From Flavobacteriales bacterium UBA6772 (GTDB lineage: Bacteria > Bacteroidota > Bacteroidia > Flavobacteriales > UBA7430), in the NCBI GenBank assembly GCA_002453265.1, contig DKGK01000015.1, positions 6,816 through 40,685 of the forward strand: DNA of 33,870 bases. Direction: 5' to 3'. Positions 9,674 to 26,610 of the stretch are shown here, in pieces. Under the pieces are notes generated by a model. It made no database searches. It worked only from the letters and a program-made list of their open reading frames with translations, and had not been told where the DNA came from. The position numbers were made by a program, and so were the translations under genes. The first letter of the stretch is position 1. Each line of letters begins with the position of its first letter.

Positions 9674-12600
9674 ATGAAAATATTAAAAATTGAATTACAA
9701 AATATTAACTCCTTAAAATCTGAAACTAGTATTGTAATAGATTTTGAAAGTGAACAGTTTAAGGATGTAGGTTTATATGCTATAACAGGAGCAACAGGAG
9801 CAGGAAAAACAACAATTTTAGATGCCATAACAATTGCATTATACAACAGTGTTCCACGTTTTAAAGAATCTAAAGGAGCACTGATTGATGTGGTAAGTCA
9901 TGGAGCGGCTAAAGCATTTAGTAGAATTACTTTTGAAAATGAAAACAATACTTATGAGGCCTATTGGGGGATAAGACTTGCAACAATTAAAGGAAAAAGA
10001 CTCTCTAACCCACAGGAAGAAGTAAGTTTAAAAAATATAACTACTGGAAAAATTTTAGCAACACAAAAAAGAAACTTGATTACAGAGGTTGTAAACGTAA
10101 CACAGTTAGATTACAAGCAATTTTTAAGGTCTGTGTTGTTGGCACAAGGTGAGTTTACTTCATTTTTATCGGCTAAGGGAGCAGAGAAAGGAAGATTGTT
10201 AGAACAAATTACTGGAGAGGATATTTATAAAAAAATAGGAGAAGGAATTTTAATAAAAAAGGGGGAAGAAGAAAAGAAGTTATCAGATTTTAAATCTAAA
10301 ATTAATGGGGATGATGTACTTGATGAAGACCAAAAATTAGAATTGAATAGAAAGGATAAAGAATTAGATCTTCAAATTAAAGTCTGTGAAGAAGAACTAA
10401 AATCCATTGAACATAATGTTAACTGGTACAAGAAACATAAAGAGTTGTCTGCTGATATGACTAAATTAATTGCAGAAGGTAAGGAGCTAGATAAAACAAT
10501 AAATGAACATAAATTGGAAATCGATTTATTGGCTATAAACGATAAGGCAGAACCTTTTGGCGAATTGATAAGAGATTTGAATTCGAATAAGAAGCTAGAA
10601 AACAAAAATAGTGAAGATTTAAAGGCAATAGAATATGAATTATCTCAATTAACACCAAAGATTGAAATAGTAACTAAAAGGGTAGAACAAGAAGAAATAG
10701 AATTAAAAAAAGCCAACATTGAACTAAATTCTTGGTTACCAAAATTTGATATTATTACGAAACTAGAGAGTCAATTTTCGGCTGAACAAAATAATAAAAA
10801 TAAAGTCAAACAAAATATAACTGCAATAAAACTGAGTGAGAATAGTTTGCTAAAAGAAAGGCAAAGAATTAGCAAAGCAAGCACAGATACAAAAGCTAGT
10901 ATTAAGATTGATGAAGCTTATGTGAACAAGAATATAATTTTAACAAAGGTTCAAACAGAACTATCAAAGTGGAATACAAATTTAACCACTTTAAATGAAA
11001 CGAAAAAAACGGTTACTGAGAGCAATTCATTTCTAACTAAGAAAGATAGTGAAGTTAAAACTACGAAGCTTGACTTAGCAGAAAACAAAAATATTCTCAA
11101 GATTAAGTCATCAGAAATAACTAAAATTGAATTGGATATAGTTTCTATCGATAAGAAATTGGAGTCAAAAAAACTTTCTGATTTATTAGACTCAAAGACA
11201 AAACTAAATACCGAAGAATCTAACTGGAAACAGATTAAAGTTTACGCTGAAGAAAAGACAAAAAAGAAAATTACAATAAACAATGTATCTAAGAACCAGA
11301 AAGACTATACATCTAAATTAACAGAAATTACAAACAATATAAATTCTATAAAAATAAAAATTACGAGTCAAGAAACTTCAGTTTCTGATGCAGAAAAAAT
11401 ATTAAATTACGAACAAAGCATATTAAAATACGAGGATGATAGGCCGAACTTAATCAAAGGAGAGGCTTGTGGATTATGCGGATCTAAGGAACATCCGTTT
11501 ACCAAACACTTAATTCCAGGTGATGTATCGAAGTCGGAAGAAGAACTAAAGCAAAGGAATAGCAAACTAACTAATCTAAAAGATAAATATGCTGAATTAG
11601 AAAAGAAGGTTGTTGGATTATGTACAAATATTACGAATTGTAAGAAACAAATAAATGCTGCAAATGAGGAGTTAAAGTTGATTACTACAAATGCTAAGAA
11701 GATAGCAGTTGACTTTGATTTAGCAGACTTTACAGGAATTTTGAAGGTACTTGGAGGTATTACTGAGGATTTAAAAAAACTAGACAAAATAATCAAATCT
11801 TCGCAGAAATTGCAAAAGCAAAGAGAGGAATATAATACAATACTTAAAAAACAAAGTAAAGCTTGTAATGACCTCAAGAAAAAGGACACGACCTATAGCA
11901 CTGTATTAAAAGGTTTGAACTCGGAGATAAATACTAGAAAAATCTACTTGGATAGCCAAGTAGAGAAATGTACTAAAATAGAACAGAGTTTAGCAATAGA
12001 GCTATTAAAGTTCAATTATAAGATTCCAACAATAGAATACTCGGTTTCATTTATTAAAACACTTGAAAATAGTATTAGTACCTATACTAATACACAAACA
12101 AACTTAGAGAGTCTTAAAGCAGCAAACAAAAATCAGAATACTAATATAACAAATTTAGAAAAACAGCTAAAAAACGAAAGCATAGCACTAAAAAACGAGG
12201 AGGACAATTTTACTAAAATTGAATCTAAGTCTAAGCGAGTAGTTGAAGAACGAATAAAGATTTTACCAAAGGAAATAAGTGTTGAAATAAAACGGACAAG
12301 ACTGCAAGATTCTAGTAAGCTAGTAAACGAAAAATTTAAAGACAGTACTAAAAAGCTTCAGCAATTAATAATTACAAAAAAAGGAAGGGAAGTTAGTAAG
12401 GATAATACATTAAAAGGACAAAAGGATTTATTAGACGAATTAAATACTTTAATGTCATCTCTTAATAGCAGACTAGATGGCAGCAGTTTTGAATCGAAAA
12501 TAGCAATTGAAAATGCTTTACTATCAGTTGATATAAAGGCGGATTACGATGGGATAAAGAAGAAAATACATGAAGAACAACTTAGATTAAACACACTAAA

Positions 12601-13327
12601 TAAGAGAAATTCAGAAGCACTAGATATACTAATTATGTCAAAAGATTTTAGTGTTTCAGAAGAAGATAGTACTAAAACTCAAAAAACATCGGCTGCTAAA
12701 AAAGAGGACTGCTTGGCAGAAAAAGGAAAAATAAGTGAGGCTTTTAGAAAAGAACAAGAAATTAGGAAACGAAACGAGTCCGTTTACACTAAAATTGATG
12801 CTCAGGAAGCAATATGTAAAGTATGGAGGGATTTATTTAAGGTAATTGGAAATTCGAAGGATGCATTTAATGTGTATGTTCAGCGCTTAACATTGAAGCA
12901 TTTACTGGATTTAGCAAACGTACATTTATTCAAATTAAACAATAGGTATTCCTTAAAGCTAGAGTCAGGCTATAAACCAAAAGAAGAATTGAATTTCAAT
13001 TTAATCGATCACTTTCAAACTGATCAATGTAGATTGGTTGATACATCAAGTGGCGGTGAAAAGTTTATTATTAGTTTGGCGTTGGCACTAGGACTTTCCG
13101 ATTTAGCGAGTAAAAACGTAAAAATAGACTCGCTATTTATTGATGAAGGTTTTGGTACTTTAGACAAAAATTCTTTAGAAACCGTAATTTCAACATTAGA
13201 AACTTTACAGTCACAAGGAAAAATGATTGGAATAATTTCGCATGTTGAAAACTTGAAAGAACGGATTCCTACTCAAATACAAATACGAAAAAAGAGCAAT
13301 GGCGTAAGTGTTGTAGAAATGGAATGA
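9674..13327 (+). CDS. sbcC: Exonuclease SbcC (Rad50-family ATPase subunit)
   Basis: 1217-aa ORF. It has Walker A GATGAGKTT, a very long Lys/Glu-rich coiled coil and a central zinc hook CGLCGS (about 11468..11479). The signature motif SGGEKF and Walker B LFIDEGFG are near the C-terminus. There is a 5-nt gap after sbcD. Confidence 0.9.
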   Translation: MKILKIELQNINSLKSETSIVIDFESEQFKDVGLYAITGATGAGKTTILDAITIALYNSVPRFKESKGALIDVVSHGAAKAFSRITFENENNTYEAYWGIRLATIKGKRLSNPQEEVSLKNITTGKILATQKRNLITEVVNVTQLDYKQFLRSVLLAQGEFTSFLSAKGAEKGRLLEQITGEDIYKKIGEGILIKKGEEEKKLSDFKSKINGDDVLDEDQKLELNRKDKELDLQIKVCEEELKSIEHNVNWYKKHKELSADMTKLIAEGKELDKTINEHKLEIDLLAINDKAEPFGELIRDLNSNKKLENKNSEDLKAIEYELSQLTPKIEIVTKRVEQEEIELKKANIELNSWLPKFDIITKLESQFSAEQNNKNKVKQNITAIKLSENSLLKERQRISKASTDTKASIKIDEAYVNKNIILTKVQTELSKWNTNLTTLNETKKTVTESNSFLTKKDSEVKTTKLDLAENKNILKIKSSEITKIELDIVSIDKKLESKKLSDLLDSKTKLNTEESNWKQIKVYAEEKTKKKITINNVSKNQKDYTSKLTEITNNINSIKIKITSQETSVSDAEKILNYEQSILKYEDDRPNLIKGEACGLCGSKEHPFTKHLIPGDVSKSEEELKQRNSKLTNLKDKYAELEKKVVGLCTNITNCKKQINAANEELKLITTNAKKIAVDFDLADFTGILKVLGGITEDLKKLDKIIKSSQKLQKQREEYNTILKKQSKACNDLKKKDTTYSTVLKGLNSEINTRKIYLDSQVEKCTKIEQSLAIELLKFNYKIPTIEYSVSFIKTLENSISTYTNTQTNLESLKAANKNQNTNITNLEKQLKNESIALKNEEDNFTKIESKSKRVVEERIKILPKEISVEIKRTRLQDSSKLVNEKFKDSTKKLQQLIITKKGREVSKDNTLKGQKDLLDELNTLMSSLNSRLDGSSFESKIAIENALLSVDIKADYDGIKKKIHEEQLRLNTLNKRNSEALDILIMSKDFSVSEEDSTKTQKTSAAKKEDCLAEKGKISEAFRKEQEIRKRNESVYTKIDAQEAICKVWRDLFKVIGNSKDAFNVYVQRLTLKHLLDLANVHLFKLNNRYSLKLESGYKPKEELNFNLIDHFQTDQCRLVDTSSGGEKFIISLALALGLSDLASKNVKIDSLFIDEGFGTLDKNSLETVISTLETLQSQGKMIGIISHVENLKERIPTQIQIRKKSNGVSVVEME

Positions 13328-13408
13328 TGCGGTAGAATTAGTTTGAAAATTTCGATGAACAAATCAAATAGAAATAAACATGAACTATAGGTCTATGAAG
13401 AATGAAAT

Positions 13409-13801
13409 TTATAGTTTTTGTTTAATCTTTTCAGCAATAAGCAACATTTCTCCATCTTCAACTTTCAACTTAGGTCGCGAGAAATTAATATCTTCTACAG
13501 ATTGTAAAGGAATTAAATGAATATGAGCGTGAGGTACTTCTAAACCAATTACTGCTATTCCTACTCGTTTACACGGTATAGCCATTTTTAGAGCTTTAGC
13601 AGTTGTTTTAGCGAAAAGCCAAAGCATAGTGTAGTTCTCGTCCGAAAGATCAAAAATAGAATCTATTTCCTGCTTAGGAATTACGAGTACATGACCCTTG
13701 GCCAAAGGAAAAACATCTAAAAAAGCTAAGAAGTGTTCATCTTCAGCGATTTTAAAGGCAGGAATTTCTCCTTTTACAATCTTGGTGAATATACTAGCCA
13801 T
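13409..13801 (-). CDS. HIT family (histidine triad) nucleotide hydrolase
   Basis: 130-aa ORF with the histidine triad HAHIHLIP and an N-terminal IFxKIxxGEIP motif. Its ATG overlaps the greA stop codon (TAATG). Confidence 0.9.
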   Translation of the reverse strand: MASIFTKIVKGEIPAFKIAEDEHFLAFLDVFPLAKGHVLVIPKQEIDSIFDLSDENYTMLWLFAKTTAKALKMAIPCKRVGIAVIGLEVPHAHIHLIPLQSVEDINFSRPKLKVEDGEMLLIAEKIKQKL

Positions 13802-14274
13802 TAACGTGAGATGCTAATAACCTCAAACTTCATGAGTCCGGCAGGAACAGTAATCTCTGCGATGTCTCCAACTTTCTTTCCTAATAATCCAGTACCGATT
13901 GGAGAATTAATTGAAATTCTTCCAGTCTTAATATTTGCCTCAGACTCGGCAACTAAAGTAACAGTCATGTCTTTTTTTGTAGCTAAATTTTTAATTTTAA
14001 CAATAGATAGAGCTAAAACTTTATCGGTATCTAATAGCGATTCGTCTATAACACGAGCTGTAGAGTACATGCCTTCGAGTTTTGAAATTTTCATTTCCAA
14101 CATCCCTTGTGCTTCTTTGGCAGCATCGTATTCTGCATTTTCCGATAAATCACCTTTATCTCGTGCCTCTGAAATCTGATTAGAGATACTAGGACGTTCA
14201 ACGAACTTTAACTGCTCAAGCTCATCTTTGAGTCTCTTTAATCCTTCTTCTGTATAATATGATATTGTTGACAT
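13801..14274 (-). CDS. greA: Transcription elongation factor GreA
   Basis: 157-aa ORF with an N-terminal coiled-coil region (GDLSENAEYDAAKE) and a C-terminal FKBP-like domain (ISINSPIGTGLLGKKVGD). Confidence 0.95.
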   Translation of the reverse strand: MSTISYYTEEGLKRLKDELEQLKFVERPSISNQISEARDKGDLSENAEYDAAKEAQGMLEMKISKLEGMYSTARVIDESLLDTDKVLALSIVKIKNLATKKDMTVTLVAESEANIKTGRISINSPIGTGLLGKKVGDIAEITVPAGLMKFEVISISR

Positions 14275-14304
14275 AATAGTACTTTTTAAAAGTAAATAAA
14301 CGCA

Positions 14305-14333
14305 AAAAGAAGATCCGATAGGATCCTCTTTTA
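14305..14333 (-). terminator. Rho-independent terminator after the PorV/PorQ-like gene
   Basis: On the minus strand: AAAAGAGGATCC-TATC-GGATCTTCTTTTT. This is an imperfect 9-10 bp stem followed by a T-run. A shorter CCTCC/GGAGG hairpin lies at 14344-14357. Confidence 0.6.
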
Positions 14334-14363
14334 AATTTAGTATCCTCCCTTAGGAGGGAAATA

Positions 14364-15419
14364 TTATAGTGTTATTCTAGCACCTATTGAGTGAGGTGAA
14401 TCTAAAGGACTTGCCTTTCGGAAAGAGTAATCTAAACCAAAGCTAGTTCCATTACTCAAAGGAATTTCGAAAGTGAAACCTGCGTTTATTCCAGTGAATA
14501 CTGTAGAACGTGTTTCGGCCTCAAATATACCTTCTTCATAAACATAACCTGATCTAAGCATAAAGTAGGATTTGTATCCGTATTCAAAACCTAAACCATA
14601 TTGGTCTTTAGTAAAAGAATTTGACGTAAAATTACCCGCTAGTGTTAAACGGTTATCTTGATCGATAGTGAAATCGTAAGAACCACCAATATTTAATAAC
14701 GAAGGTAATTCGAAAGCAGCAGATCTAAGCTCATAAGTTTGATCATACTCCTGACCATTAGCTTCATCGTTTGTTAATCTCACACCATTACCATCACCTT
14801 CAAATTTCAATTTAGGACCTACATTTTTTAAAGAAACCCCAAATTTAATTTGACGATTTGCACCGGCCACATACTGAATACCAGCATCTAAAGACATTCC
14901 AGAAGCTTTCATATCTGGAGTGTTTTCAGAAATCATTCTTACAGTAGCACCACCAGAGATGTTGTCGGTAAATTTCTTAGCATAAGAAAGACCAATATTC
15001 ATTACAACTGGAGAATAGGTGGCTCCTGTTCCTTCTGGAGACTCAGAGTTTGTAATATCAATATCACCAAAGTCGATAGAGGTAATAGATAAACCAAGAA
15101 CTCCACCATCGCTAAGTGACTTAGAGAAACCAAAAGCATTTACTTGCATGTCGAAAAGCCAAGAAGTAGACGCGAAAATAAACTCTGTATTTTCGGTACC
15201 TGCCAAACCAGCAACATTTAAGAAAGTAGCTTCAAGCCCTTGAATAGAAGCAGTGTTAATACCACCCCAACCCGATGAACGAGCCCAAGGGTTGATTAAC
15301 AATTCAGTAGCCCCAGCCTGTCCCGAACGCTGTTCGTTACCTGCAAATGCACTACTAGAACAAAGTACTAATAAACCTGTTAAAAGAACAGGTAAGAGTT
15401 GTTTTGTATATTTTTTCAT
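14364..15419 (-). CDS. PorV/PorQ-family (FadL-like) outer-membrane beta-barrel protein
   Basis: Signal peptide MKKYTKQLLPVLLTGLLVLCSSSAFA. The mature N-terminus GATELLINPWARSSGWGG resembles the PorV/PorQ conserved motif. Alternating beta-strand pattern throughout. I chose the start at MKK (15419) rather than 15452. It lies 10-43 nt downstream of the 1339-aa gene. Confidence 0.7.
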   Translation of the reverse strand: MKKYTKQLLPVLLTGLLVLCSSSAFAGNEQRSGQAGATELLINPWARSSGWGGINTASIQGLEATFLNVAGLAGTENTEFIFASTSWLFDMQVNAFGFSKSLSDGGVLGLSITSIDFGDIDITNSESPEGTGATYSPVVMNIGLSYAKKFTDNISGGATVRMISENTPDMKASGMSLDAGIQYVAGANRQIKFGVSLKNVGPKLKFEGDGNGVRLTNDEANGQEYDQTYELRSAAFELPSLLNIGGSYDFTIDQDNRLTLAGNFTSNSFTKDQYGLGFEYGYKSYFMLRSGYVYEEGIFEAETRSTVFTGINAGFTFEIPLSNGTSFGLDYSFRKASPLDSPHSIGARITL

Positions 15420-15462
15420 AACCATAGTCGTATGAATTTTAGTCTTTAACAATATTGTTCTA

Positions 15463-18400
15463 CTAGAATGAATCTAAATCAATTGGACGAAGTGCACCAA
15501 ACCATTTAATAACTTTCTCACCGTATTCCTTTCCATCTACATGTATAATATATACACCCGATGCAATCGCAATATTGTAATTGTTCTTTAAATCCCAGTC
15601 CCAACCAGTAACATTTACTTCACTATCTAAATCTACACGTCTTACGAGAGTACCCGACACATTGTAAATAGAAATAGTACATACTTTAGGCAGATTAGTA
15701 ACTCTTACACGAGTATCTATTTGACCAAGTTCATAGTTATTATTACCGTAGTATGGATTAGGAACAACTTTAATAAGGTCCATAGCACTTTTAGCCGTTT
15801 CTAAATCATTCTTAACAGTCATGATAGATTCTGTAGAGAACGTTAATAAAGGATTACCATTGTTAATATCAGAGGCAGTACAATCATCGGTATCTTCTAA
15901 ATTATACCTAGAATAACTTTTAGAAACCCTAAGTTGAACCTCGATATTACCGTCAGACAAAATAGAATTTTGAGAGGTAAGTGGAATGGATGTCCAAGCC
16001 ATATCCTTGAATACTTTTACACTATTTACAAAAGAACTCATATTTATTAACCTACTGTATAATGGGTGATCCTCTTCATTATCTCCAGCATATTCGCTCA
16101 TGGCAACATATAAGTAATGACGACCACCAAGAATAAAACTGGTAGGATCAAAAATATCTCCATCTAATATAGTAGAAGTAGGATTCCAAATCATATCGTT
16201 CCCGTTATGGTCAGGTATGGTAGAAGCTTCACCAAACATCATGTTTACACGAATTCCTCTTTCTAAATCGAATGCATAACCAGGAAACCAAGAGAATCCA
16301 GTAGATCCAGAAGCTTCGTCCAATCCTTCTTTGTCAACAGATGGAGAAGATTTTAAAGTCATTCTATCATCTGTATCACCTGTTTCGATTACAGGAACAC
16401 GAGTCCAAAGCGATTTATCAGCTGTATAAACAATATCTACAGAAGATAATGTATTTAACTTTTCTCTAGCACTAATACTTGGAGCATGTGGGAAAGGAGA
16501 ATCGTCTTTATCATACCCCACTAAAGCATAAGGAGCCCACATACCATTAAGTACATTTTCGTAAGTAGAATTTTCATCTACCCAAGCATCAACATTTCCA
16601 AAATCAATATAAATAGGATCAGTAACAGAAGGGTCAGGATCTGGATTAGAAGCTGTACCAGAACGAATCCAATTTAATGGGTGTACGAATACACCATCTG
16701 GACCTTGAAAAAAGAAATCATTATCAGGAACAAAGTCTAACCAAGAAGTAGAATTATCTTTAATTAAGGTAGCACTAATTAGTCCATTTGTACCTTTAGT
16801 GTCATCACCAGCATCAATTCCATTTACGATTGTAACAGAAAGTCCCCAGTCTGCAATGATTTGCTCATTCTTAACACTCAATGTAGTGTCTGAACTTACA
16901 GAAACACCAGTTGTCTCATTTGTTAAGACCCATCTAGCAGTATCATTTACAGCATTCATTACAAAAGTAAAGTCTGTGTTTTCTGGAACACTTAAAGGAT
17001 CAATAACTTTAATATCTACTGGAGAACCATCAACAGCATAACCAGTACTAGTAGTACAAATTGAAGGATCTAGTAAAGCTAATTTCATTTCAGATGTAAA
17101 CTGTAGCTCTAAACCACCATTTCCTGAACCTTCTAAACGAGTCATATTAGGAATAGTTCCGTAATCTGCGTTTTGAATAGTACCGTTTGATTCTGCAGTT
17201 GTAATATGAGGAATGGCAGAATATTGCTTAATATTTTTACGACCAGCTAAGAAAGGTTTTTTCTGACCTTCGAAACTTCCTGCATAAATATTATCAGGAT
17301 CTGGCACTACATCTTGCTTATACTCAATGAATTCGTTATATCCGTAAGCAATAGCAGTAAAGTAGTACGTTTTATTATTAATTAAAGTACGATCTCCAGA
17401 TGCAAATAAATCTTGATTTACCACAAAGGAGTGGATAATTCCTTCATTTGCTGCTTGTAGCGTCATGTTTGTAGGAACATCAGCTTCTAAAGCTAAACTA
17501 AAATTATAGTTAGTAAGATTTGCGATAGGAGAAATAGTTTCTTCTGAAGTGACCATTCCATTATCGTCTCTATAGTTTTCAATATCACATTGGAAAACCA
17601 TTCTAGCTCTATCAATATCGTAAACGTCCGCAGCCGTAACTGTTTCGTCTTTTAATTGGAATATTTGATAACCTTCGAAAACGTAAGAGTCTCTATAAGG
17701 AAGTGTTTGTTCTTCGTCATAAAAGCCAGAAATATTAATTTGATCTTGTTCTAGATAATCTTCATTAGAATTTTGGCTGTTGTTAGAAATATTAGCAGCG
17801 TTAGATAAGGTAATAATAATTTCCTTATCTAGTTCTTGAATTGCCATATCTGGAGCATCAGGACCGTCAAGTACCTCGAAACAGATATCGAAAAGTTTTT
17901 GAGCTTTGTCATCTGCAATACGCATAAGCTCTACAGACGCCCATGCACCACCAGAATTAGCACGTGCCCAAACAACACCTGTTGTAATGGTGTTTAAAGC
18001 ACCAGGCTCAAGCGTAAAAGGACCTGCAGATTGGACAAAACGTCTATCATTTGGTACGTTTCCAGCAATTTGTTCTGTCCACTGCTCATCAAATGCAGGG
18101 TCAGTAGTTCCAGGGAACATATAATTACATAGTGGACTAGATGGGTTTCTACCATCAGCACCATAAGTCATTGGTTTATTATCTAACCATTTACCTTGTA
18201 AGTAATTGTAAAAGTCTTGTGCTAAGTCTGGATTACCAGTAACTGTACCATCGTTATTAAAGTACATAAACTTAGACATAATGATCTGTTCTCCGGCTTC
18301 ATCAATAATACCATCTAAATCATTATCAATACCATCACCTTCATCGGCAATAGGACCTCTAAAGAAATCTACTCCAATTGCAGGTGGATTTGAACCATAA

Positions 18401-19482
18401 CCAGCAGCAGTTTCATCGTCTTCATCACCATTGTAACAGTACCCTAAACCTCTGGCAACATCACAACCAACAAAATCATCTTGATAATTTCCTAAATCTG
18501 GATCAACATGAACCCCGAAGTACGCCTCGTTTAATGCATTATGAGAACGATTGATTAACTTATAGTTGTAAAAAGTCATGTTGTTAATCTCATCGTTGGT
18601 AGAAAAAGCAAAGGCTTGAGCCTGTATTTCTAAACCAATTGGCTCTATAGAACCAGAAGCAGTATGAGACTCACCTTTATCGTTATAAACCCACCAAAGC
18701 GTTTGATCACCAAAAAGTATATCTGCTTCTTGACAGTTAAAAGAACCATCTAGATTGTACTCTGGATAATCTCCAGCTGATGCATTATAAACACCATCTC
18801 CATTTACATCTCGGAAAGGAGCAAGCGTTTCCAATGCGTAATATGGACTTGTACCTACTTGTTCATCGTAACCGTCGAAAGCATTATCATTTTGATCATC
18901 GTCTTCACGGTTACCTGGGTAATTTAAAATAGAAAGCGGAATAGAGTAATCAGGAAATTCAAGACTTGGATTCTCTGAAATAGAATAAGCCACAAACTGC
19001 TCTACTTCTGCTCTAGTAATAACATGGTGGTAATCATACTTCGCACAAATATTAGCTTCAGTAGTACCGTATTTATTGTTAGGACTTCCATCTGCACTCA
19101 ATCGTACATTATCTATAGGTCCTGGCCAAAAGTCGTTACCAGATTGACGATATGTTTGAGCAGCAACTTTAAGTTGGTCATCATCGTCCATACCACCAAT
19201 CCATAGAGAACCAGCAAACAATGAATGTTTCCCACTATTTTTAGGGATTTCGTATTTCCCATCAGATAAATTCCACCACATATCACCACCATTCAAAATG
19301 GTAGTCTTAACATTATTAATATCTAATAATGTTTGAGCAGTACCAGCAGCACAATTAAAGGCCAACGACTGAGTTGGAGTAGTAACTTCGCCACCAGAAT
19401 AATTAACATTTTCTTTTGCTTGAGCTCCCAAACCTAGGGTTGCAAAGAAAACGTACAGCGTATTTTTGATTGTCTTTTTCAT
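15463..19482 (-). CDS. Large secreted protein of unknown function with a T9SS-like C-terminal domain
   Basis: 1339 aa counted from MKKTIKN (the ORF track starts 7 codons earlier, at 19503). Signal peptide ...ATLGLGAQA. An acidic Ca-binding-like loop DGIDNDLDGIIDE lies at about 18298..18348. The C-terminal domain VVPNPYYG...ISIYNVSGTLV...GVYIIHV...KVIKWFGALRPIDLDSF spans 15466..15778. Confidence 0.8.
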   Translation of the reverse strand: MKKTIKNTLYVFFATLGLGAQAKENVNYSGGEVTTPTQSLAFNCAAGTAQTLLDINNVKTTILNGGDMWWNLSDGKYEIPKNSGKHSLFAGSLWIGGMDDDDQLKVAAQTYRQSGNDFWPGPIDNVRLSADGSPNNKYGTTEANICAKYDYHHVITRAEVEQFVAYSISENPSLEFPDYSIPLSILNYPGNREDDDQNDNAFDGYDEQVGTSPYYALETLAPFRDVNGDGVYNASAGDYPEYNLDGSFNCQEADILFGDQTLWWVYNDKGESHTASGSIEPIGLEIQAQAFAFSTNDEINNMTFYNYKLINRSHNALNEAYFGVHVDPDLGNYQDDFVGCDVARGLGYCYNGDEDDETAAGYGSNPPAIGVDFFRGPIADEGDGIDNDLDGIIDEAGEQIIMSKFMYFNNDGTVTGNPDLAQDFYNYLQGKWLDNKPMTYGADGRNPSSPLCNYMFPGTTDPAFDEQWTEQIAGNVPNDRRFVQSAGPFTLEPGALNTITTGVVWARANSGGAWASVELMRIADDKAQKLFDICFEVLDGPDAPDMAIQELDKEIIITLSNAANISNNSQNSNEDYLEQDQINISGFYDEEQTLPYRDSYVFEGYQIFQLKDETVTAADVYDIDRARMVFQCDIENYRDDNGMVTSEETISPIANLTNYNFSLALEADVPTNMTLQAANEGIIHSFVVNQDLFASGDRTLINNKTYYFTAIAYGYNEFIEYKQDVVPDPDNIYAGSFEGQKKPFLAGRKNIKQYSAIPHITTAESNGTIQNADYGTIPNMTRLEGSGNGGLELQFTSEMKLALLDPSICTTSTGYAVDGSPVDIKVIDPLSVPENTDFTFVMNAVNDTARWVLTNETTGVSVSSDTTLSVKNEQIIADWGLSVTIVNGIDAGDDTKGTNGLISATLIKDNSTSWLDFVPDNDFFFQGPDGVFVHPLNWIRSGTASNPDPDPSVTDPIYIDFGNVDAWVDENSTYENVLNGMWAPYALVGYDKDDSPFPHAPSISAREKLNTLSSVDIVYTADKSLWTRVPVIETGDTDDRMTLKSSPSVDKEGLDEASGSTGFSWFPGYAFDLERGIRVNMMFGEASTIPDHNGNDMIWNPTSTILDGDIFDPTSFILGGRHYLYVAMSEYAGDNEEDHPLYSRLINMSSFVNSVKVFKDMAWTSIPLTSQNSILSDGNIEVQLRVSKSYSRYNLEDTDDCTASDINNGNPLLTFSTESIMTVKNDLETAKSAMDLIKVVPNPYYGNNNYELGQIDTRVRVTNLPKVCTISIYNVSGTLVRRVDLDSEVNVTGWDWDLKNNYNIAIASGVYIIHVDGKEYGEKVIKWFGALRPIDLDSF

Positions 19483-19505
19483 ATACATACAATTTTCTAC
19501 CAAGA

Positions 19506-22500
19506 CTAAAAGTCTAGTGTTACACCTAAACGAAGCGTTCTTGGACGCGTGTAATTATTTGGGTTATTTAACTTTAATGAATATAAGTCAACGTAAGAGT
19601 TTGGGTCAACTTTATTTGGAACATCGGTTAAACCAACGGCAGAAGTAAGATAACCATCGTCATCTGCATTACCAGTATATTGGTAAATAGACACAATATT
19701 CTTAGTGTTCAATAAGTTTTGAACTTGGAAATAAACATTCATAGAAGTCGATTTCTTATCCTCTCCTTCACCCCAAGAAATATCGAAGCTTTTGTTAACT
19801 CTCATATCCATACGGAATCTCCACGGTAAACGTGATCCGTTTACACTTCCCTCTAAGTTAGATCTATCGTTTTCTCCAAAAACAGCCTCACGAGTAACAT
19901 TTAACTGTCGTGAGAATGGCGTTCCCGAACCTGCTGTAGCAACAAGGTTTACACCTGCATTTTCGAATATTGGATATCCTTTTACAGTAGGACCGTTGTA
20001 TTTGTTTCCTGAACCGTAACGGAAATCCATACTTGCAGTTAAATTATGACGTTGATCGTAATCTAAAGGCAAAGTAGTTCTTAAGTTAGGTTGGTCAGAA
20101 TTTACAATGTTTACACCTGAAGTTGATGAAGAACCAGAACCATCTGCAAACTGTAAAGTATAGTTTGCATTAAAGCTAACATTTCCTGTTCTACGCATTT
20201 CGTATGCAACAGACAATCCTTTTACAGTACCAAAGTCAATATTACCAAAAGTAAAATAGTCTTTTGGGTAAGCAAAGGCAACTTTAGTGTACTGAATCAT
20301 GTCTCTCATTTCTCTATAGAAAGCAGATATAGAAAGAGCAGAACTAGAAGATAAAGTTTGTTTAAACCCTAATTCGTAATCAGTAGTACGTTGAGATTTT
20401 AAATTTGGATTATTAATAGTTGTAGCTGTTAAGTGAGCTAAGTATAAATAATCTGTAGGATCCATTCTGTTTCTACTCGGACGTTGCGTTAATACATCGT
20501 AGTGAGCATAGAAAATAGCTTCATCAGAAATAGGAAAGTTGAAAGAAATACGAGGCATGAAAGATACTTGCGGTGTATAATCTTCAAATGCATCAGCACT
20601 TAATCCAGCATTTAAAGGATCCGTACCGGAATCCGCATCAGGATCTGCCAACATTGGAATAACACCAGTAGAAACATCTAATACTTTAGGATCTGTAATA
20701 GGAAGACCTTCTGCATTGTACCAGTTATCTCCATTTCTATATCCTGTAATATACGCAGCACTTACGCTATTATCAACATACACAACATAGTCGTCGCCAA
20801 TATTTGTTGGATGAGTTCCAAAATCGTTAACCTCTCCAGCTGTAAGTACATTGTAAAGCGAGTACCTGTCTTTTAATACTTCTTGGTTGGCATCGTATCT
20901 ATCTACACGAACACCAATATTGAAGATTAAATCTTCGAAAGCGAATTTATCTTGAATATAACCCGCTACATAAATAGGTTGAAAAGCACCCATTTCACGT
21001 TTATAATCTCCATTTTCATCTTTGTCGGTTAAGAATTCTTTCATTCCTGGCTGAACCCCTTCCAATTTATTACCCTCTGTATCGTAACCGTACCATGTAC
21101 CGTAAGACGAATTAGGATTTTGGGTAAGTAACTCATCAGCACTAAACATAGAAATATCGAAGTCAGAAGGCAAATAAGTATGAATATCTACAATTTGGTC
21201 GTAGCCAATTTGATGCGAATCTCTAAACTTAGTTGCGAAACTTGTCATTTCGTCGTAGTTGTAAATGTTTTGCTGCCCAACAAGAGTACCTTGATCATTT
21301 AAAAATTCGTAAGAACCTTCTTCGAAACCAATGTATTTATTTACTTGCTGTTGAGCTAAAGTCCATAATCCTACCGGTGTAACACTGTAGTATCTATCGT
21401 CTCTTTGCTCGTATTCGAAACCAAACTGTAATGCATGGTCATTAATATCGGCAGATGCAGAACCTGTAAAACGGAATTGAGCATCTTTACTTCTGTTGTA
21501 TCCGTTGTACTCTCTACCAGTATTATACCACACAGAATAAACGTTATCTGTACGATCTCCGTTTACTGCAGCACCTATACCACTTACTTGTGCCAAGTTA
21601 GTAATCCCTTGATTATCTAAATAGTCGAAATAAGTTTGCGTATAATTTGTAGCATAAGGATTTAAATTAGCACCTTCGAAAGCATAATTTGTAATTACGT
21701 TCGTTTGCTCAGCAAAATTGTAAAAAGGTACATTTTGTTGTAATTCTTCGTCAAAGTAAAAGCCACCAACTTCTACCATAGTATCAATAACACCACTTGG
21801 TGTATTCCATAATACATTTAAACTATCATCTGGGCTCCAAGGAGTATTGTAGTCTAAATTACGTTCTGGCGTAAATTTACCAATATACCCATAGTTAAAT
21901 AAATTGTCTTTGTGATCTGAATCTTGAGTAGTCTCATTGTCTTGAGAATAATCTGCCTGTAAAGTAAAGAATGCATTCTTTAAAGTAGAAGAAGATTGCT
22001 CTTCATCTGACGCACCAAAACTCTGCTGTAAACGAGAATAAACTCTCCAAGAATTCTTTATCGTTTCAGGATTATTTTCAGGATTGAATAAGCTATATGT
22101 ATAAATATACCCTCTATTTTTCGAATAAGAAAAGTTACCACCTAGAGTAATGTTTGTATTTTTAGAAGGCTTAAAATCTATTTTACCTTGTAAACTCGCA
22201 TTTACTTTCCCAACATTCTCTTTAGTGTCAACATATTCAAGATCCTCCATAGTAACAAATTCGGAAGCTTTTAAAGCTTGAACCTCACCTTGGCTACTAC
22301 TAAACAATAATGGGTTTGCTTGTAGCTCAGCCATTACATCGTCTTTAACCTTATACATTCCAACGGCAGAAGGATCTTCATTCTTTATCTTTTCGTATTC
22401 ACCAGACAAAAAGAAACCTAAGATAGAGTTACCATCTTTCTTCTTTAAAGGACCCGACAAGTTGAAACCTAATAGATTGTATCCATAAGGATCAAGAAGG

Positions 22501-23219
22501 CTAGAAGTTACAACTTCTACCCCACCGAAGAAATCGTTCGATGGACCTCGTGTTGTTATACTAATTACACCACCCATAGCATCACCATAAGAAGCAGGTA
22601 AACCACCTGTAATTACAGTCATTTGCTCAATTGCAGATTGTGGTATTTTATTCGAAGCTCTTACCTTAACCCCATCGATATAAAAGAAAGTAGCATCAGA
22701 ACGTGCACCACGCACATTTAAATCTCCACCTTCATCCTCCTGATAAATACCGGCAGTTTGTGCAGCCACCGACTGAACATCACGCGTTGGTAATGCAGTA
22801 ATTTCTTCCTTAGTTTTAGTAGTACCAGTTTTATCTGGATCGATAAGAGGGACTACATATTCAACTAATTCTACCGTTCCCAATACATCGGCCTCAACTT
22901 TAAGACCTGCGTTGATAAAAGTAATCTTGCTAGAAGAAACCAAAACTTCGGTAATCTCTTTGGTTGCGAAACCAATAAAAGACACTTTCACGGTGTATCG
23001 ACCAGGGTCTATTGGTTTAATAGTATACTTACCATCAAAATCCGCAACAGCCCCATCAATGACGGTTCCATTTGATTCTATCACAATATTTGCCATTGGT
23101 ACAGGCTCTCCTGTATCAAACTCTGTGATTGTACCTTTTAAGGTACCTGATTGCGACTGTGCTATAGAATAGTTTGAAATCCCGAGCAAGGCAATCACAG
23201 CTAATAATTTTCGCAGCAT
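19506..23219 (-). CDS. TonB-dependent-receptor-like outer-membrane protein with an N-terminal carboxypeptidase-regulatory-like domain
   Basis: 1237-aa ORF with signal peptide ...NYSIAQ. A CarboxypepD_reg-like segment (GTLKGTITEFDTGEPVPMANIVI...DGKYTI..PGRYTVKVSFIGF) is followed by a plug-like segment (LNVRGARSD..FYIDGVKV...IEQMTVITGGLPASYGDAMGGVISITT). A long barrel ends in the OMP-type terminal motif LRLGVTLDF. No SusD-like partner is adjacent. Confidence 0.85.
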   Translation of the reverse strand: MLRKLLAVIALLGISNYSIAQSQSGTLKGTITEFDTGEPVPMANIVIESNGTVIDGAVADFDGKYTIKPIDPGRYTVKVSFIGFATKEITEVLVSSSKITFINAGLKVEADVLGTVELVEYVVPLIDPDKTGTTKTKEEITALPTRDVQSVAAQTAGIYQEDEGGDLNVRGARSDATFFYIDGVKVRASNKIPQSAIEQMTVITGGLPASYGDAMGGVISITTRGPSNDFFGGVEVVTSSLLDPYGYNLLGFNLSGPLKKKDGNSILGFFLSGEYEKIKNEDPSAVGMYKVKDDVMAELQANPLLFSSSQGEVQALKASEFVTMEDLEYVDTKENVGKVNASLQGKIDFKPSKNTNITLGGNFSYSKNRGYIYTYSLFNPENNPETIKNSWRVYSRLQQSFGASDEEQSSSTLKNAFFTLQADYSQDNETTQDSDHKDNLFNYGYIGKFTPERNLDYNTPWSPDDSLNVLWNTPSGVIDTMVEVGGFYFDEELQQNVPFYNFAEQTNVITNYAFEGANLNPYATNYTQTYFDYLDNQGITNLAQVSGIGAAVNGDRTDNVYSVWYNTGREYNGYNRSKDAQFRFTGSASADINDHALQFGFEYEQRDDRYYSVTPVGLWTLAQQQVNKYIGFEEGSYEFLNDQGTLVGQQNIYNYDEMTSFATKFRDSHQIGYDQIVDIHTYLPSDFDISMFSADELLTQNPNSSYGTWYGYDTEGNKLEGVQPGMKEFLTDKDENGDYKREMGAFQPIYVAGYIQDKFAFEDLIFNIGVRVDRYDANQEVLKDRYSLYNVLTAGEVNDFGTHPTNIGDDYVVYVDNSVSAAYITGYRNGDNWYNAEGLPITDPKVLDVSTGVIPMLADPDADSGTDPLNAGLSADAFEDYTPQVSFMPRISFNFPISDEAIFYAHYDVLTQRPSRNRMDPTDYLYLAHLTATTINNPNLKSQRTTDYELGFKQTLSSSSALSISAFYREMRDMIQYTKVAFAYPKDYFTFGNIDFGTVKGLSVAYEMRRTGNVSFNANYTLQFADGSGSSSTSGVNIVNSDQPNLRTTLPLDYDQRHNLTASMDFRYGSGNKYNGPTVKGYPIFENAGVNLVATAGSGTPFSRQLNVTREAVFGENDRSNLEGSVNGSRLPWRFRMDMRVNKSFDISWGEGEDKKSTSMNVYFQVQNLLNTKNIVSIYQYTGNADDDGYLTSAVGLTDVPNKVDPNSYVDLYSLKLNNPNNYTRPRTLRLGVTLDF

Positions 23220-23384
23220 AAACTTATCTTTTAGTTTGGCCTAGATTTTTTTTCAATCTGGTAAATATAGAACTAATTAAAGTTCTATTCTAATACTTTT
23301 TTCAAGTAATAATCGTTTCACCTAAATTATTTGTTGTTTTTTTGCACCAACGGAATCAAACAAACCTCAATATCAACTATTTGT

Positions 23385-23801
23385 ATGAAACGAATACTTT
23401 TCCTTATTAGCCTTCTATTACTAATATATAGCTGCGATAAAGATAAATACCAATTCCCAGACGCACAGGTTAACACATTTTTATACCCGAATAATGTCGA
23501 ATTTAACGGCTTGAACTTTCCCGGAGGCTCAGCTTATATTAACGGTGGTGTTAATGGTATTTTAATATTTCACGATCTTTTTGATAATTATATAGCCTAC
23601 GACAGAGCGTGTACAAATGAACCCTTAAATAATTGTGAGCAGATTTATATTAACACCGAAGAACTAAATACACTTGCCTGCCATTGCTGCGATTCTGAGT
23701 ATTTTATTTATGATGGTGCGGTAATGCAAGGTCCAGCAAATTACTCACTCCACAGATACAACACTAGCTTTGATGGGGTTAAGTTAAGTATTTTTAATTA
23801 G
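23385..23801 (+). CDS. Small lipoprotein with a degenerate Rieske-like domain
   Basis: I moved the start to ATG 23385 (MKRILFLISLLLLIYSC, a lipobox). AYDRACTNEP and LACHCCDSEYFIYDGAVMQGPA resemble the two Rieske ligand loops (CxH / CxxH...GPA), but with the His ligands replaced. Confidence 0.6.
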   Translation: MKRILFLISLLLLIYSCDKDKYQFPDAQVNTFLYPNNVEFNGLNFPGGSAYINGGVNGILIFHDLFDNYIAYDRACTNEPLNNCEQIYINTEELNTLACHCCDSEYFIYDGAVMQGPANYSLHRYNTSFDGVKLSIFN

Positions 23802-24031
23802 CTGAATAGGGTAAACTCAAGTGAAGACTGATACAAAAAACATATCGTTATTCTTTTTGCCGTCAAAAGAGATAAATGACCTAAAAGACTGCTATGGAGC
23901 AGGATTATAAAAAGTTGTGTATTGAGTTATAAGTTTTACTTGATAAATCAAATGATAATTAAGTTGTTTTGAATTCTTATTAAACACTCTGTAATAAATT
24001 TTCATTTCTCAGATAAAAAATGATTAAAATC

Positions 24032-24057
24032 AAAAAATCGCCCAAGGGCGATTTTTT
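24032..24057. terminator. Bidirectional rho-independent terminator (serves ahcY and possibly the upstream lipoprotein gene)
   Basis: Perfect AAAAAATCGCCC-AA-GGGCGATTTTTT palindrome. Confidence 0.75.
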
Positions 24058-24164
24058 GATTTTATGAAATTAAGAATGTTTTTTAGGATTTAGTATCTCC
24101 TAAAATTATTAGAGCAATAAATGAGCCTTAACACCTCTAAATTCATAACCACTTGTTATACATA

Positions 24165-25466
24165 CTAATAACGGTAGTATTCTGGCTTGTAAGGTCCTCC
24201 AACAGGAACACTAATATAATCAGCTTGATCGTGACTAAGAACCTCTAGTACTACACCTAACTTTGCCAAGTGTAAACGAGCTACTTTTTCGTCTAAATGC
24301 TTAGGTAAGGTATAAACCTTATTTTCGTACTTATCAGAGTCTAGCCATAACTCTAATTGAGCTAAAGTTTGATTCGCAAAAGAGTTAGACATTACAAAAG
24401 AAGGGTGTCCTGTAGCACAACCTAAGTTTACTAATCGTCCTTCAGCTAATAAAATAATATCCTTACCAGCAATTGTATATTGATCTACCTGAGGTTTGAT
24501 TTCAACCTTTGAAGCTCCGTGGTTGTTGTTCAACCAAGCAACATCAATCTCGTTATCGAAGTGTCCTATATTACATACAATAGCCTTGTCTTTCATGTTT
24601 TCGAAATGACGACCTACTATAATATCTTTGTTCCCTGTAGTGGTAACAATAATGTCTGCCTGCTTCACAGCATCCTCCATTTTTTTCACTTCGAAACCTT
24701 CCATCGCAGCTTGCAAAGCACAGATAGGGTCAATTTCGGTAACGATAACACGTGCACCAGAAGCTTGTAATGACTGAGCAGAACCTTTCCCTACATCACC
24801 ATAACCTGCTACAACAGCAACCTTACCTGAAATCATAACATCGGTAGCTCTACGAATACCATCTACTAAAGACTCACGACATCCGTATTTATTATCAAAC
24901 TTAGATTTTGTAACAGAATCGTTTACGTTAATCGCCGGCATAACAAGCGTTCCGTTTTTCTCTCTGTCGTATAGACGGTGAACACCAGTAGTCGTTTCCT
25001 CAGACAATCCTTTGATATCTGCAACTAACTCTGGAAATCTATCGAAAACCATGTTGGTTAAATCACCACCATCGTCTAAAATTAAATTTAAGGCTTTACC
25101 ACCTTTAAAAGATTGAAGTGTTTGCTCTATACACCAGTCAAATTCCTCGTCGTTCATACCTTTCCAAGCGAAAACTGGAACACCAGTAGCAGCAATTGCA
25201 GCTGCAGCATGATCTTGAGTAGAAAATATATTACATGAAGACCAAGTAACATCGGCTCCTAAGGCAACAAGAGTTTCAATTAATACAGCCGTTTGAATAG
25301 TCATGTGTAAACAACCTGCAATACGAGCTCCTTTTAAAGGTTGTGCTGCTGCATACTCTTCACGAATAGACATTAAACCGGGCATTTCTGCCTCAGCCAA
25401 ACGAATTTCTTTTCTTCCCCAATCTGCTAAAGAAATGTCTTTAACTTTGTATTGAACTGCACTCAT
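24165..25466 (-). CDS. ahcY: Adenosylhomocysteinase
   Basis: 433-aa ORF with [15 protein letters not shown], the NAD-binding GYGDVGKG motif, HFDNEID and C-terminal [10 protein letters not shown]. All are hallmark SAH hydrolase motifs. Confidence 0.97.
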
Positions 25467-25498
25467 AGTTTCGTAATTTTTTAATAAACTTTAGACCA

Positions 25499-25506
25499 CA
25501 AAGATA
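25499..25506 (-). promoter_or_regulatory. Candidate -7 box (TATCTTTG on the minus strand) for ahcY
   Basis: The plus strand reads CAAAGATA, an exact reverse complement of TAnnTTTG. It lies 33 nt upstream of the ahcY ATG. Confidence 0.35.
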
Positions 25507-25584
25507 CAATAATAGAACCAGTAATTAATCACTATTTTTAAGGAGCTTTGAAGTTATATAATATGAATTTACAGAAGGCAAATC

Positions 25585-26610
25585 TTAAACTATAAAATCT
25601 TCTTTGCTCATACCTAACCATTCCAATGCAGACTTACTTAAAAGTTGTTCTTTTTGTGCATCGTCCCATGGCATGTTATTTATCAATTGTCCAGGCTGCA
25701 ATTCCCCTAAGGGGAAAGGATAATCAGTACCTAAAGCAATTTTATCGGCTCCAATAACATCAACAATGTACTCCAGCATTTTAGGGTCGTGTACAAGACT
25801 GTCAATATAAAACTTTCCTATATAATCTCTAGGATGCTTTTTATTATCAACTGCACATAAGTCTGGTCTAACGTCAAAGCCATGCGAAACCCGACCAATT
25901 GTTGAAGGAAAAGAACCACCACCATGAGCAAAAGCAACACGAAGTTCTGGCAATCTTTCGAAAACGCCACCAAAGATAAAGGAACAAATAGCCCTAGAAC
26001 TTTCTGCGGGCATGCCCACCAACCATGGTAGCCAATATTTATCCATATGCTCCTTAGCCATCATATCCCAAGGATGTACAAATACGGACATATCTAATTC
26101 CTGACAGGCTTCGAAAATTGGGAAAAACTCAGCTTCGTTTAGATTCTTATTGTTTACATGCGTTCCAATTTGAATCCCTTTTAATCCAATTTTTTTACAA
26201 CGTTTTAATTCTTGTATCGCCAAATTAGTGTCTTGCATTGGCAAAGTACCCAAGCCTGCAAAACGGTTTGGGAAACGACTTACGATATCAGCAATATGGT
26301 CGTTTAAAAACTCCGCTACTTCTAATGTATCTTTAGGTTCTGCCCAATAAGAAAACATCACAGGAACGGTAGATAAAACTTGTACATGAACACCATGCTC
26401 ATCGCATTCTTTCATTCTACTTTCTGCAGACCAACAATTATCATCCACTTCACGAAAAAATGTGTCGTCCATCATCATTTTAGCACAGCAAGGTTTGTGA
26501 TGCTCTAAATTGATAAATCCTCCGTAACCAAATTTTTCTTTAAAATTAGGAATATCTTTTGGGAGGATGTGTGTATGAATATCTATGGTAAATAAATTCT
26601 TTTGAGGCAT
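25585..26610 (-). CDS. 2-amino-3-carboxymuconate-6-semialdehyde decarboxylase (ACMSD; amidohydrolase_2 family)
   Basis: 341-aa ORF. IDIHTHILPK, FGYGG, LSTVPVMFSYWA, GLGTLPMQ, VFVHPWDM, YWLPWLVGMPAE, FAHGGGSFP, GTDYPFPLGE are near-identical blocks to animal ACMSD as I recall it. It lies 8 nt downstream of the HAAO gene. Confidence 0.85.
   Translation of the reverse strand: MPQKNLFTIDIHTHILPKDIPNFKEKFGYGGFINLEHHKPCCAKMMMDDTFFREVDDNCWSAESRMKECDEHGVHVQVLSTVPVMFSYWAEPKDTLEVAEFLNDHIADIVSRFPNRFAGLGTLPMQDTNLAIQELKRCKKIGLKGIQIGTHVNNKNLNEAEFFPIFEACQELDMSVFVHPWDMMAKEHMDKYWLPWLVGMPAESSRAICSFIFGGVFERLPELRVAFAHGGGSFPSTIGRVSHGFDVRPDLCAVDNKKHPRDYIGKFYIDSLVHDPKMLEYIVDVIGADKIALGTDYPFPLGELQPGQLINNMPWDDAQKEQLLSKSALEWLGMSKEDFIV

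Follow-up and report, generated by a model that had tools for sequence, protein, structure and literature searches.

Locus and Transcription Unit

Here, we describe a trio of genes in a stretch of DNA from Flavobacteriales bacterium UBA6772 (contig DKGK01000015.1, positions 6,816 to 40,685 of the forward strand), the whole 33,870 nucleotides (nt) of which we call the window. Three minus-strand open reading frames (ORFs), packed closely, fill positions 14364-23219 of the window. They encode a TonB-dependent transporter-like protein (gene 1, 19506-23219, 1237 amino acids, aa), a giant secreted protein of 150 kDa for which we use the working label BIG (gene 2, 15463-19503, 1346 aa when read from a TTG start), and a PorV-like barrel (gene 3, 14364-15452, 362 aa, likewise from a TTG start). 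Alternative starts are available for the second and third genes: an ATG at 19482 (MKKTIK...) shortens BIG to 1339 aa and leaves a gap of 23 nt to gene 1, and an ATG at 15425 or 15419 leaves 37-43 nt between BIG and the barrel, which is ~353 aa long from the ATG (14364-15425). An earlier note, made from the sequence alone, had described three co-directional genes with tiny gaps, and the ORF calls with ATG starts agree with it.

Downstream, the unit is closed by an intrinsic terminator on the minus strand (14305-14332) with a 12-pair stem and a T-rich tail, which bears out the terminator proposed earlier; a terminator scan of the trio gave no comparable structure between the three genes. Upstream, the promoter and 5' leader are placed at 23220-23290 (minus strand) by the ends of RNA-derived contigs and by a Bacteroidota -7-like box, TATATTTA, at 23269-23262 in the divergent upstream region. 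A sigma-70 promoter scan is uninformative for this lineage, as the sites that it predicts are no more numerous than in shuffled sequence.

Several marine metatranscriptomes contain 93-98% of the sampled words of the window, and contigs of four marine metatranscriptomes, which carry no strand information, were placed on positions 12000-26000 with matches of 99-100%. Single RNA-derived contigs cross both the barrel/BIG junction (X1 14584-18556 and X4 14818-16060) and the BIG/transporter junction (X1 18527-23246 and X2 15521-22586), and the upstream contig ends in the four data sets fall at 23240, 23246, 23258, and 23287, just 5' of the first start codon. Contig depth over the trio is ~9-75, similar to that of ahcY, and drops more than fivefold upstream of the promoter region, to ~1-6 at 23675-24141; it collapses in 12000-13400 too, and is zero over sbcC in two of the four runs. 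The pattern speaks for RNA, not DNA carry-over, as the source of the contigs and favours a single transcription unit. The three genes are therefore one operon that is co-transcribed in the sea, and the single unit of the earlier note is seen in contigs that span both junctions, with the terminator confirmed. Two contigs (X1 14133-14613 and X2 13786-14951) cross the terminator into greA (13801-14274, minus strand); termination may be leaky, or the assembler may have merged overlapping transcripts.

Functional Annotation of the Three Products

The features described in this section lie on the minus strand unless stated otherwise. The product of gene 1 opens with a signal peptide at the N-terminus of the 19506-23219 product (ending ...SIA/QSQ), followed by a CarboxypepD_reg-like N-terminal extension domain (aa 26-102; 22914-23144; PF13620, 55.8 bits) and a Plug domain (aa 133-218; 22566-22823; PF07715, 40.2 bits against a cutoff of 23.9). 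In the PDB, a profile built from its orthologs matches N-terminal domains solved in isolation, from a TonB-dependent receptor (6ytc) and from a SusC homolog (9hfj), and also the plugs of CirA, PfeA, and related receptors. In this copy, the Pfam barrel model (PF00593) gives no match at E<=0.01; its alignment with the orthologs spans the full length, at 41-72% identity, and TonB_dep_Rec_b-barrel (PF00593) is found in 20 of the 28 full-length orthologs (best 8.8e-18), with CarboxypepD_reg and Plug in all 28 that were aligned. Partial matches to NCBIfam TonB-receptor models cover aa 182-300 and 880-1082. Between the N-domain and the plug, the consensus of the ortholog alignment holds a conserved segment, EVExVEYxxPLID, which may be the TonB box.

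The common subtypes were considered in turn. No SusC/RagA NCBIfam model matches at E<=0.01, which sets aside a SusC/RagA-type receptor; a SusD partner is set aside too, the downstream gene having neither a SusD Pfam match nor a lipobox; and an Oar-type barrel is rejected since PF25183 (OMP_b-brl_4) is absent from this copy and matches one of the 28 orthologs. By its domain matches, then, gene 1 is a TonB-dependent transporter that is neither SusC-type nor Oar-type. Of the parts that the earlier note had read in this product, CarboxypepD_reg and plug are matched here directly and the barrel by way of the 20 orthologs, so that its own doubt, that plug or barrel might be lacking, did not hold; nor is there a SusD-like lipoprotein next door, as it had said. 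The lengths of transporter and BIG are weakly correlated (Spearman 0.24 among close relatives, 0.39 with distant ones included), which we do not use as support.

BIG, read from its ATG (15463-19482), has a signal peptide (...GAQA/KEN) and belongs to no Pfam family, and a PDB sequence search gave no match; the earlier description of a middle product with a signal peptide and no catalytic motif that could be named stands. Its homologs are many: of 8000 candidates scored, 6958 proved homologous, and their names go no further than 'hypothetical' or 'T9SS ... sorting domain' (T9SS, type IX secretion system). The segment common to distant homologs is a conserved N-domain (aa ~40-725; 17329-19386) with an acidic loop, DGIDNDxDGxIDE, and a beta-supersandwich core. 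In a library of 1.84 billion proteins, this N-domain occurs in 7250 clusters at 50% identity (E<=1e-3), and in 5688 at E<=1e-10.

BIG was modelled in two halves with AlphaFold2, using 51-row alignments. The N-half (aa 28-740) is mostly beta, with a predicted local distance difference test (pLDDT) score of 76, and its best PDB folds are the N-terminal beta-supersandwich of GH94 phosphorylases, GH116/GH63-type glucosidases (GH, glycoside hydrolase), and dextran dextrinase (E 2.5e-5). No counterpart of the catalytic (alpha/alpha)6 barrels of such enzymes is present in the N-half model, and the match offers a weak hint that the N-domain may bind carbohydrate. In the C-half (aa 730-1346; pLDDT 85), the lineage-variable central region (aa ~770-1220; 15844-17196) is mostly modelled at pLDDT >90, has no convincing PDB fold match, and is largely missing from the 1050-1140-aa homologs of other classes.

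The most informative part of BIG is its variant T9SS C-terminal domain (CTD; aa ~1240-1333; 15505-15786), which is PorZ-like by sequence and by predicted fold. When the modelled domain is compared with the PDB by Foldseek, the best structure is that of PorZ (5M11; E 1.3e-5, 122 columns, 24% identity), followed by PorU (6ZA2); a PDB sequence search with the CTD alone yields a weak match to the FlgD immunoglobulin-like (Ig-like) domain only. The NCBIfam PorZ model, NF052228, matches the BIG CTD at 26 bits through positions ~656-750 of its 757, the second-best match to this model in the whole genome, behind PorZ itself; it matches seven of 14 family members, always through these last ~90 positions. 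Other CTD models stay below their cutoffs. TIGR04183, the generic type A model, scores 20.5 bits, below its cutoff of 23, FlgD_ig scores 19.1 bits, below its cutoff of 27, and PF18962 does not match BIG at all. TIGR04183 matches in 12 of the 14 family members, and the five with individual scores stand at ~18-21 bits, below the cutoff. The window provides an internal contrast: an M43 metallopeptidase with a PKD domain (6175-8361, plus strand) ends in a canonical type A CTD (PF18962, 43.7 bits).

Beyond the usual last strand of such a domain (...GEKVIK), BIG continues for 13 residues, WFGALRPIDLDSF (15466-15504). The WFGALRPIDLDSF tail is invariant or nearly so among close relatives (alignments A1 to A3), and homologs from Rhodothermia-like, Ignavibacteria-like, and Zixibacteria genomes keep an alternating hydrophobic pattern with a terminal F, L, or Y. 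In the model of the BIG monomer, the tail has low confidence, as one would expect if it folds on a partner. The T9SS-style CTD of the earlier note thus stands as an Ig-like fold near the CTDs of PorZ and PorU; it does not stand as a clean type A domain, given the sub-threshold TIGR04183 score and the extra tail.

The product of gene 3, read from the ATG (14364-15425), has a signal peptide (...SAFA/GNEQ) and is a PorV/PorQ-family barrel of the 14-strand type. It passes the PorV_fam model NF033709 (145.4 bits, cutoff 90), as expected of the PorV/PorQ-type paralog that had been proposed, and its sole PDB sequence match is Flavobacterium johnsoniae PorV. We rejected canonical porV, porQ, and PorV2 as identities for gene 3, as it stays below all three equivalog cutoffs (PorV NF033710, 74 of 250 bits; PorQ NF033711, 63 of 220; PorV2 NF052325, 30 of 325) and falls into a clade of its own. 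A maximum-likelihood tree was computed for 46 members of the PorV family, taken from 12 genomes. In it, all ten trio-linked barrels form one clade with 100/100 support, apart from the canonical PorV clade (100/100), which scores with the PorV model, and from two Bacteroidia clades whose members score with the PorQ (NF033711) and PorV2 (NF052325) models. Within the trio-barrel clade, Bacteroidia are split from the other classes, which fits vertical descent of the whole module.

Two observations on the wider barrel family may be added. The PorV2 clade, a fourth one, is found in other Bacteroidia (L135:376-1491 and L137:485-1561), where its members pass NF052325, 'putative type IX sorting system protein PorV2'; no member was seen in the source genome, whose assembly of 1.28 Mb is 68% complete. 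Genomes of classes other than Bacteroidia (G127, G035, G096, G111, and G012) hold 10-16 PorV-family barrels each, compared with 3-5 in Bacteroidia, which suggests many private pairs of cargo and barrel.

The source genome has its own type IX genes. Canonical porU lies on another contig (C78:14367-17708, 1232 bits) with porV directly after it (415 bits), true PorQ on contig C97 (337.6 bits), and true PorZ on contig C12 (279 bits, truncated where the contig stops), and sprA is also present. With porU, porV, porQ, porZ, and SprA elsewhere in the genome, the trio is an additional module. Two rejected identities for BIG belong here: it is not PorU, having no NF033707 or Peptidase_C25 match while the real porU-porV pair is on another contig, and it is not PorZ, its 26 bits with NF052228 falling far below the equivalog cutoff of 260 and covering CTD positions only, with no match to the beta-propeller body. 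The earlier note had itself allowed that the middle protein might simply be PorU, and the last gene the canonical single-copy porV; the absence of a C25 match, the separate barrel clade, and the real porV elsewhere speak against both.

Conservation and Gene Neighbourhood

Among 79 related loci, the transporter gene lies 5' of BIG in 75 and the barrel gene 3' of it in 71; the exceptions are contig ends and two solo BIG paralogs (L032 and L064), which have neither a barrel nor a cognate transporter. Each of the six distant genomes examined within the phylum keeps the order transporter-BIG-barrel, and so does a trio on the complete chromosome CP070777 from Zixibacteria, whose products are 936, 1068, and 332 aa long. 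Closed genomes exist for several of the carriers. Because the order is kept across the 79 loci, the six distant genomes, and Zixibacteria, the adjacency of the three genes is not due to chance, and the earlier note, which had made its case depend on co-conservation, is not refuted on this point.

To survey the wider distribution, 301 species of the same GTDB phylum were sampled. The BIG N-domain is present in at least 51 of their genomes: 11 belong to the class of the source genome, and 40 or more to other classes, where BIG is ~1050-1260 aa long and matches only in the N-domain and the C-terminal domain. SprA is present in every BIG-positive genome of the sample and in the Zixibacteria carrier, and the sole family of the sample that lacks SprA also lacks BIG. 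A trio carrier without SprA, which would favour autonomous export, was found neither among the 301 genomes nor in the Zixibacteria genome. Two further families of the same order were represented by 26 genomes; SprA is present in every one of these and BIG in none.

The flanking genes are largely syntenic as well, with greA-HIT downstream and a small divergent gene and ahcY upstream. The small gene (23331-23801, plus strand; 156 aa, no Pfam family) adjoins the operon promoter and occupies the same place and orientation in 51 of the 79 related loci, at 24-81% identity; it may be linked to the trio module or may merely be syntenic. One metatranscriptome contig over this gene derives from a diverged strain (13 mismatches, 4 gaps).

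Several loci show additions after the barrel gene. A second BIG copy follows the barrel in five Bacteroidia loci (L035, L036, L038, L048, and L030). Its CTD and tail match those of the first copy exactly or almost so in all five, and overall identity, compared for L036 only, is 67%. In L104, three extra BIG paralogs that lack the tail come after the trio (L104:11663-19003). In distant carriers, the gene after the barrel encodes a GWxTD-domain protein in two cases (L102:11717-13252 and L104:10265-11629) and a multihaem-cytochrome plus tetratricopeptide repeat (TPR) protein in two (L101:12163-14331 and L103:3100-5274); these proteins may be lineage-specific fourth components.

Comparison with Known Systems

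Every part of the trio belongs to a known kind; the combination is new and its function is unproven. Full-text literature searches on the trio, on PorV paralogs, and on complexes of the T9SS with TonB-dependent transporters gave no description of it, in keeping with the earlier note, which knew of no described function for the trio. Four known systems can be distinguished that share some of its features.

The first comprises the PorZ-PorQ and PorU-PorV pairs of Porphyromonas gingivalis. PorU and PorZ, the two T9SS substrates known to retain their CTDs, stay bound to PorV and PorQ, and it has been proposed that cognate PorV-like barrels shield such CTDs from cleavage (PMC10202324). As in these pairs, in which a kept CTD is held at the surface by a PorV-family barrel, the trio has a barrel of the same family (NF033709) and a PorZ-like CTD. 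It differs in that BIG is unlike PorZ and PorU beyond the CTD, has no C25 domain, and carries the extra 13-residue tail, and in that the barrel forms a separate clade and is encoded in one operon with a TonB-dependent transporter.

The second is the Type B CTD of F. johnsoniae with its PorP/SprF-like shuttle. Type B substrates require an SprF-like shuttle encoded directly downstream, substrates and shuttles are made in matching amounts, and the final site can include a third outer-membrane protein encoded in the operon, e.g., PorE (PMC12618676). The layout resembles that of the trio, with a substrate gene followed by a private barrel gene and a third outer-membrane protein in the operon; in the Type B systems, this third protein sets the final destination, and paralogous substrates with near-identical CTDs can share one shuttle. 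In contrast to these systems, BIG has a CTD of the type A/PorZ kind instead of type B, its barrel is a PorV/PorQ-family and not a PorP/SprF-family protein, and the third partner is a TonB-dependent transporter, not the peptidoglycan-binding PorE.

The third kind, SusC-SusD, RagA-RagB, and BtuB-BtuG, likewise has a CarboxypepD_reg-like TonB barrel beside a large extracellular partner that could capture a ligand and cap the barrel. Lipoproteins of the SusD and BtuG type are the capture partners of other Bacteroidota transporters. The trio differs in having no SusC/RagA model match and no SusD. BIG lacks a lipobox as well; its delivery would fall to the T9SS, and a third protein would keep it in place.

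The fourth is the Oar-PopC system of Myxococcus xanthus, in which Oar is needed for secretion of the protease PopC (PMC6434023). Here too, a secreted protein goes with a barrel of the TonB-dependent type whose N-domain is CarboxypepD_reg. The trio barrel is not of the Oar type by Pfam, however, BIG has a T9SS-like tail and a PorV-like barrel of its own, and the T9SS translocon is present in all trio carriers examined.

Proposed Mechanism and Alternatives

The trio shares with the Type B systems the layout of substrate, private barrel, and third outer-membrane protein, and it has a PorZ-type CTD; on these two grounds, we propose an anchoring and capture role for BIG. One constitutively transcribed operon would give rise to a stable outer-membrane complex. 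BIG would reach the periplasm via Sec and cross the outer membrane via the type IX translocon, with its C-terminal Ig-like domain as the signal. The CTD would not be cut off but would stay on the cognate PorV-family barrel encoded directly downstream, as PorZ stays on PorQ and PorU on PorV, and the extra 13-residue C-terminal strand would probably add specificity to the pair. The barrel would keep BIG at the cell surface beside the upstream-encoded TonB-dependent transporter, where BIG would act as an extracellular capture or lid subunit, its beta-supersandwich N-domain pointing to a glycan ligand. BIG would thereby take the role that SusD and BtuG-like lipoproteins have elsewhere, with import driven by TonB energy.

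We give this reading, in which T9SS-exported BIG is barrel-anchored through its uncleaved CTD and tail and serves as the capture subunit of the transporter, an even chance of being right as a whole; the anchoring step is likelier than the uptake step. What we infer comprises the dependence on the T9SS, the retention of the CTD, the contacts of BIG with barrel and transporter, the direction of transport, and the substrate.

Several points weigh against it and should be kept in mind. The BIG CTD lies below the curated cutoffs of both type A models, and for this reason the export of BIG itself by the T9SS is something we infer. SprA is nearly universal in the sampled lineages, so that its co-occurrence with BIG discriminates weakly. 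The solo BIG copies without an adjacent transporter or barrel (L032 and L064) and the extra paralogs without a tail (L104) indicate that BIG can exist outside a strict trio. Contig depth is a crude measure of expression, and metatranscriptomes can contain DNA. The candidate TonB box is a conserved segment only, not a validated motif. Finally, the fold match of the N-domain is local, with poor superposition (template-modelling score ~0.2, root-mean-square deviation >9 A), which makes the idea of a glycan ligand a weak one.

The best-surviving alternative, which we nevertheless regard as unlikely, is that the operon joins a private secretion pair to an independent importer. BIG would then be an ordinary T9SS cargo (an adhesin, or a protein that degrades or binds polymers) served by a shuttle or anchor barrel of its own, and there would be no physical three-part complex; the transporter would work alone or take up products released by BIG. 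Gene pairs of substrate and shuttle are established for Type B CTD proteins (PMC12618676), solo BIG copies do occur away from any trio, and a single transporter and a single barrel can serve several BIG paralogs, all of which would suit such an arrangement. The position of the transporter gene directly 5' of BIG from Bacteroidia to Zixibacteria, which would be hard to keep without functional coupling, argues against this alternative, as does the presence of the three genes on one transcript with gaps of 23-43 nt.

A second alternative turns the machine outward: the TonB-dependent barrel would carry out the export or assembly of BIG, leaving the PorV-like barrel to catch its tail, partly or fully independently of SprA, as with Myxococcus Oar. 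That a TonB-dependent transporter can be required for protein secretion is established (PMC6434023), and the failure of the BIG CTD to reach the type A cutoffs speaks for such a route as well. We consider it improbable, since the transporter is not Oar-type (PF25183 matches one of the 28 orthologs, the general TonB-dependent barrel model 20 of them), SprA is present in all carriers examined, including Zixibacteria, and the fold and motifs of the CTD are those of T9SS proteins.

Least probable is that BIG is an accessory of T9SS sorting, i.e., a PorZ/PorU-like part of a second attachment-type complex that, for example, presents a glycolipid or glycan to which cargo is anchored, with the PorV-like barrel as its seat and the plugged barrel as a conduit for the anchor molecule: the CTD is nearest to that of PorZ, the barrel is in the PorV/PorQ family, NCBIfam already holds an extra sorting paralog, 'PorV2', in Bacteroidia, and the supersandwich N-domain could bind a glycan, but the genome already has a complete set of PorU, PorV, PorQ, and PorZ, BIG has only its CTD in common with PorZ or PorU, and the absence of the trio from the 26 sampled SprA-bearing genomes of the two sister families means that it is not needed for secretion generally.

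Significance

Returning to the anchored capture complex, a wider claim can be made, which we put forward tentatively and with somewhat less confidence than the mechanism itself. The trio may stand as the type case of a class of TonB-dependent outer-membrane machine that has gone unrecognised and is spread across the FCB (Fibrobacteres-Chlorobi-Bacteroidetes) superphylum. In such a machine, the extracellular subunit would be a giant, T9SS-delivered protein that is not a lipoprotein, and a private PorV-family barrel would retain it permanently by means of an uncleaved PorZ-type domain and a C-terminal strand. The module would have escaped notice because the usual model organisms appear to be without the trio; if the two families without BIG are those that hold these organisms, this would explain why it has not been met at the bench. 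The BIG family, with more than 5,000 clusters, has no Pfam entry.

If the proposal is true, it would carry the principle of a cognate barrel, serving as shuttle or anchor, over to the PorV family proper and would join T9SS sorting and TonB-dependent uptake, which have so far been studied separately. Three genes and one conserved 13-residue tail make a testable target. The operon is kept in a streamlined genome, and its transcription is comparable to that of a housekeeping gene. TonB-dependent transporters serve marine Bacteroidota as major gateways for organic matter, and type IX secretion is the signature export route of the phylum; an operon that ties both together would add a new way to build an uptake complex.

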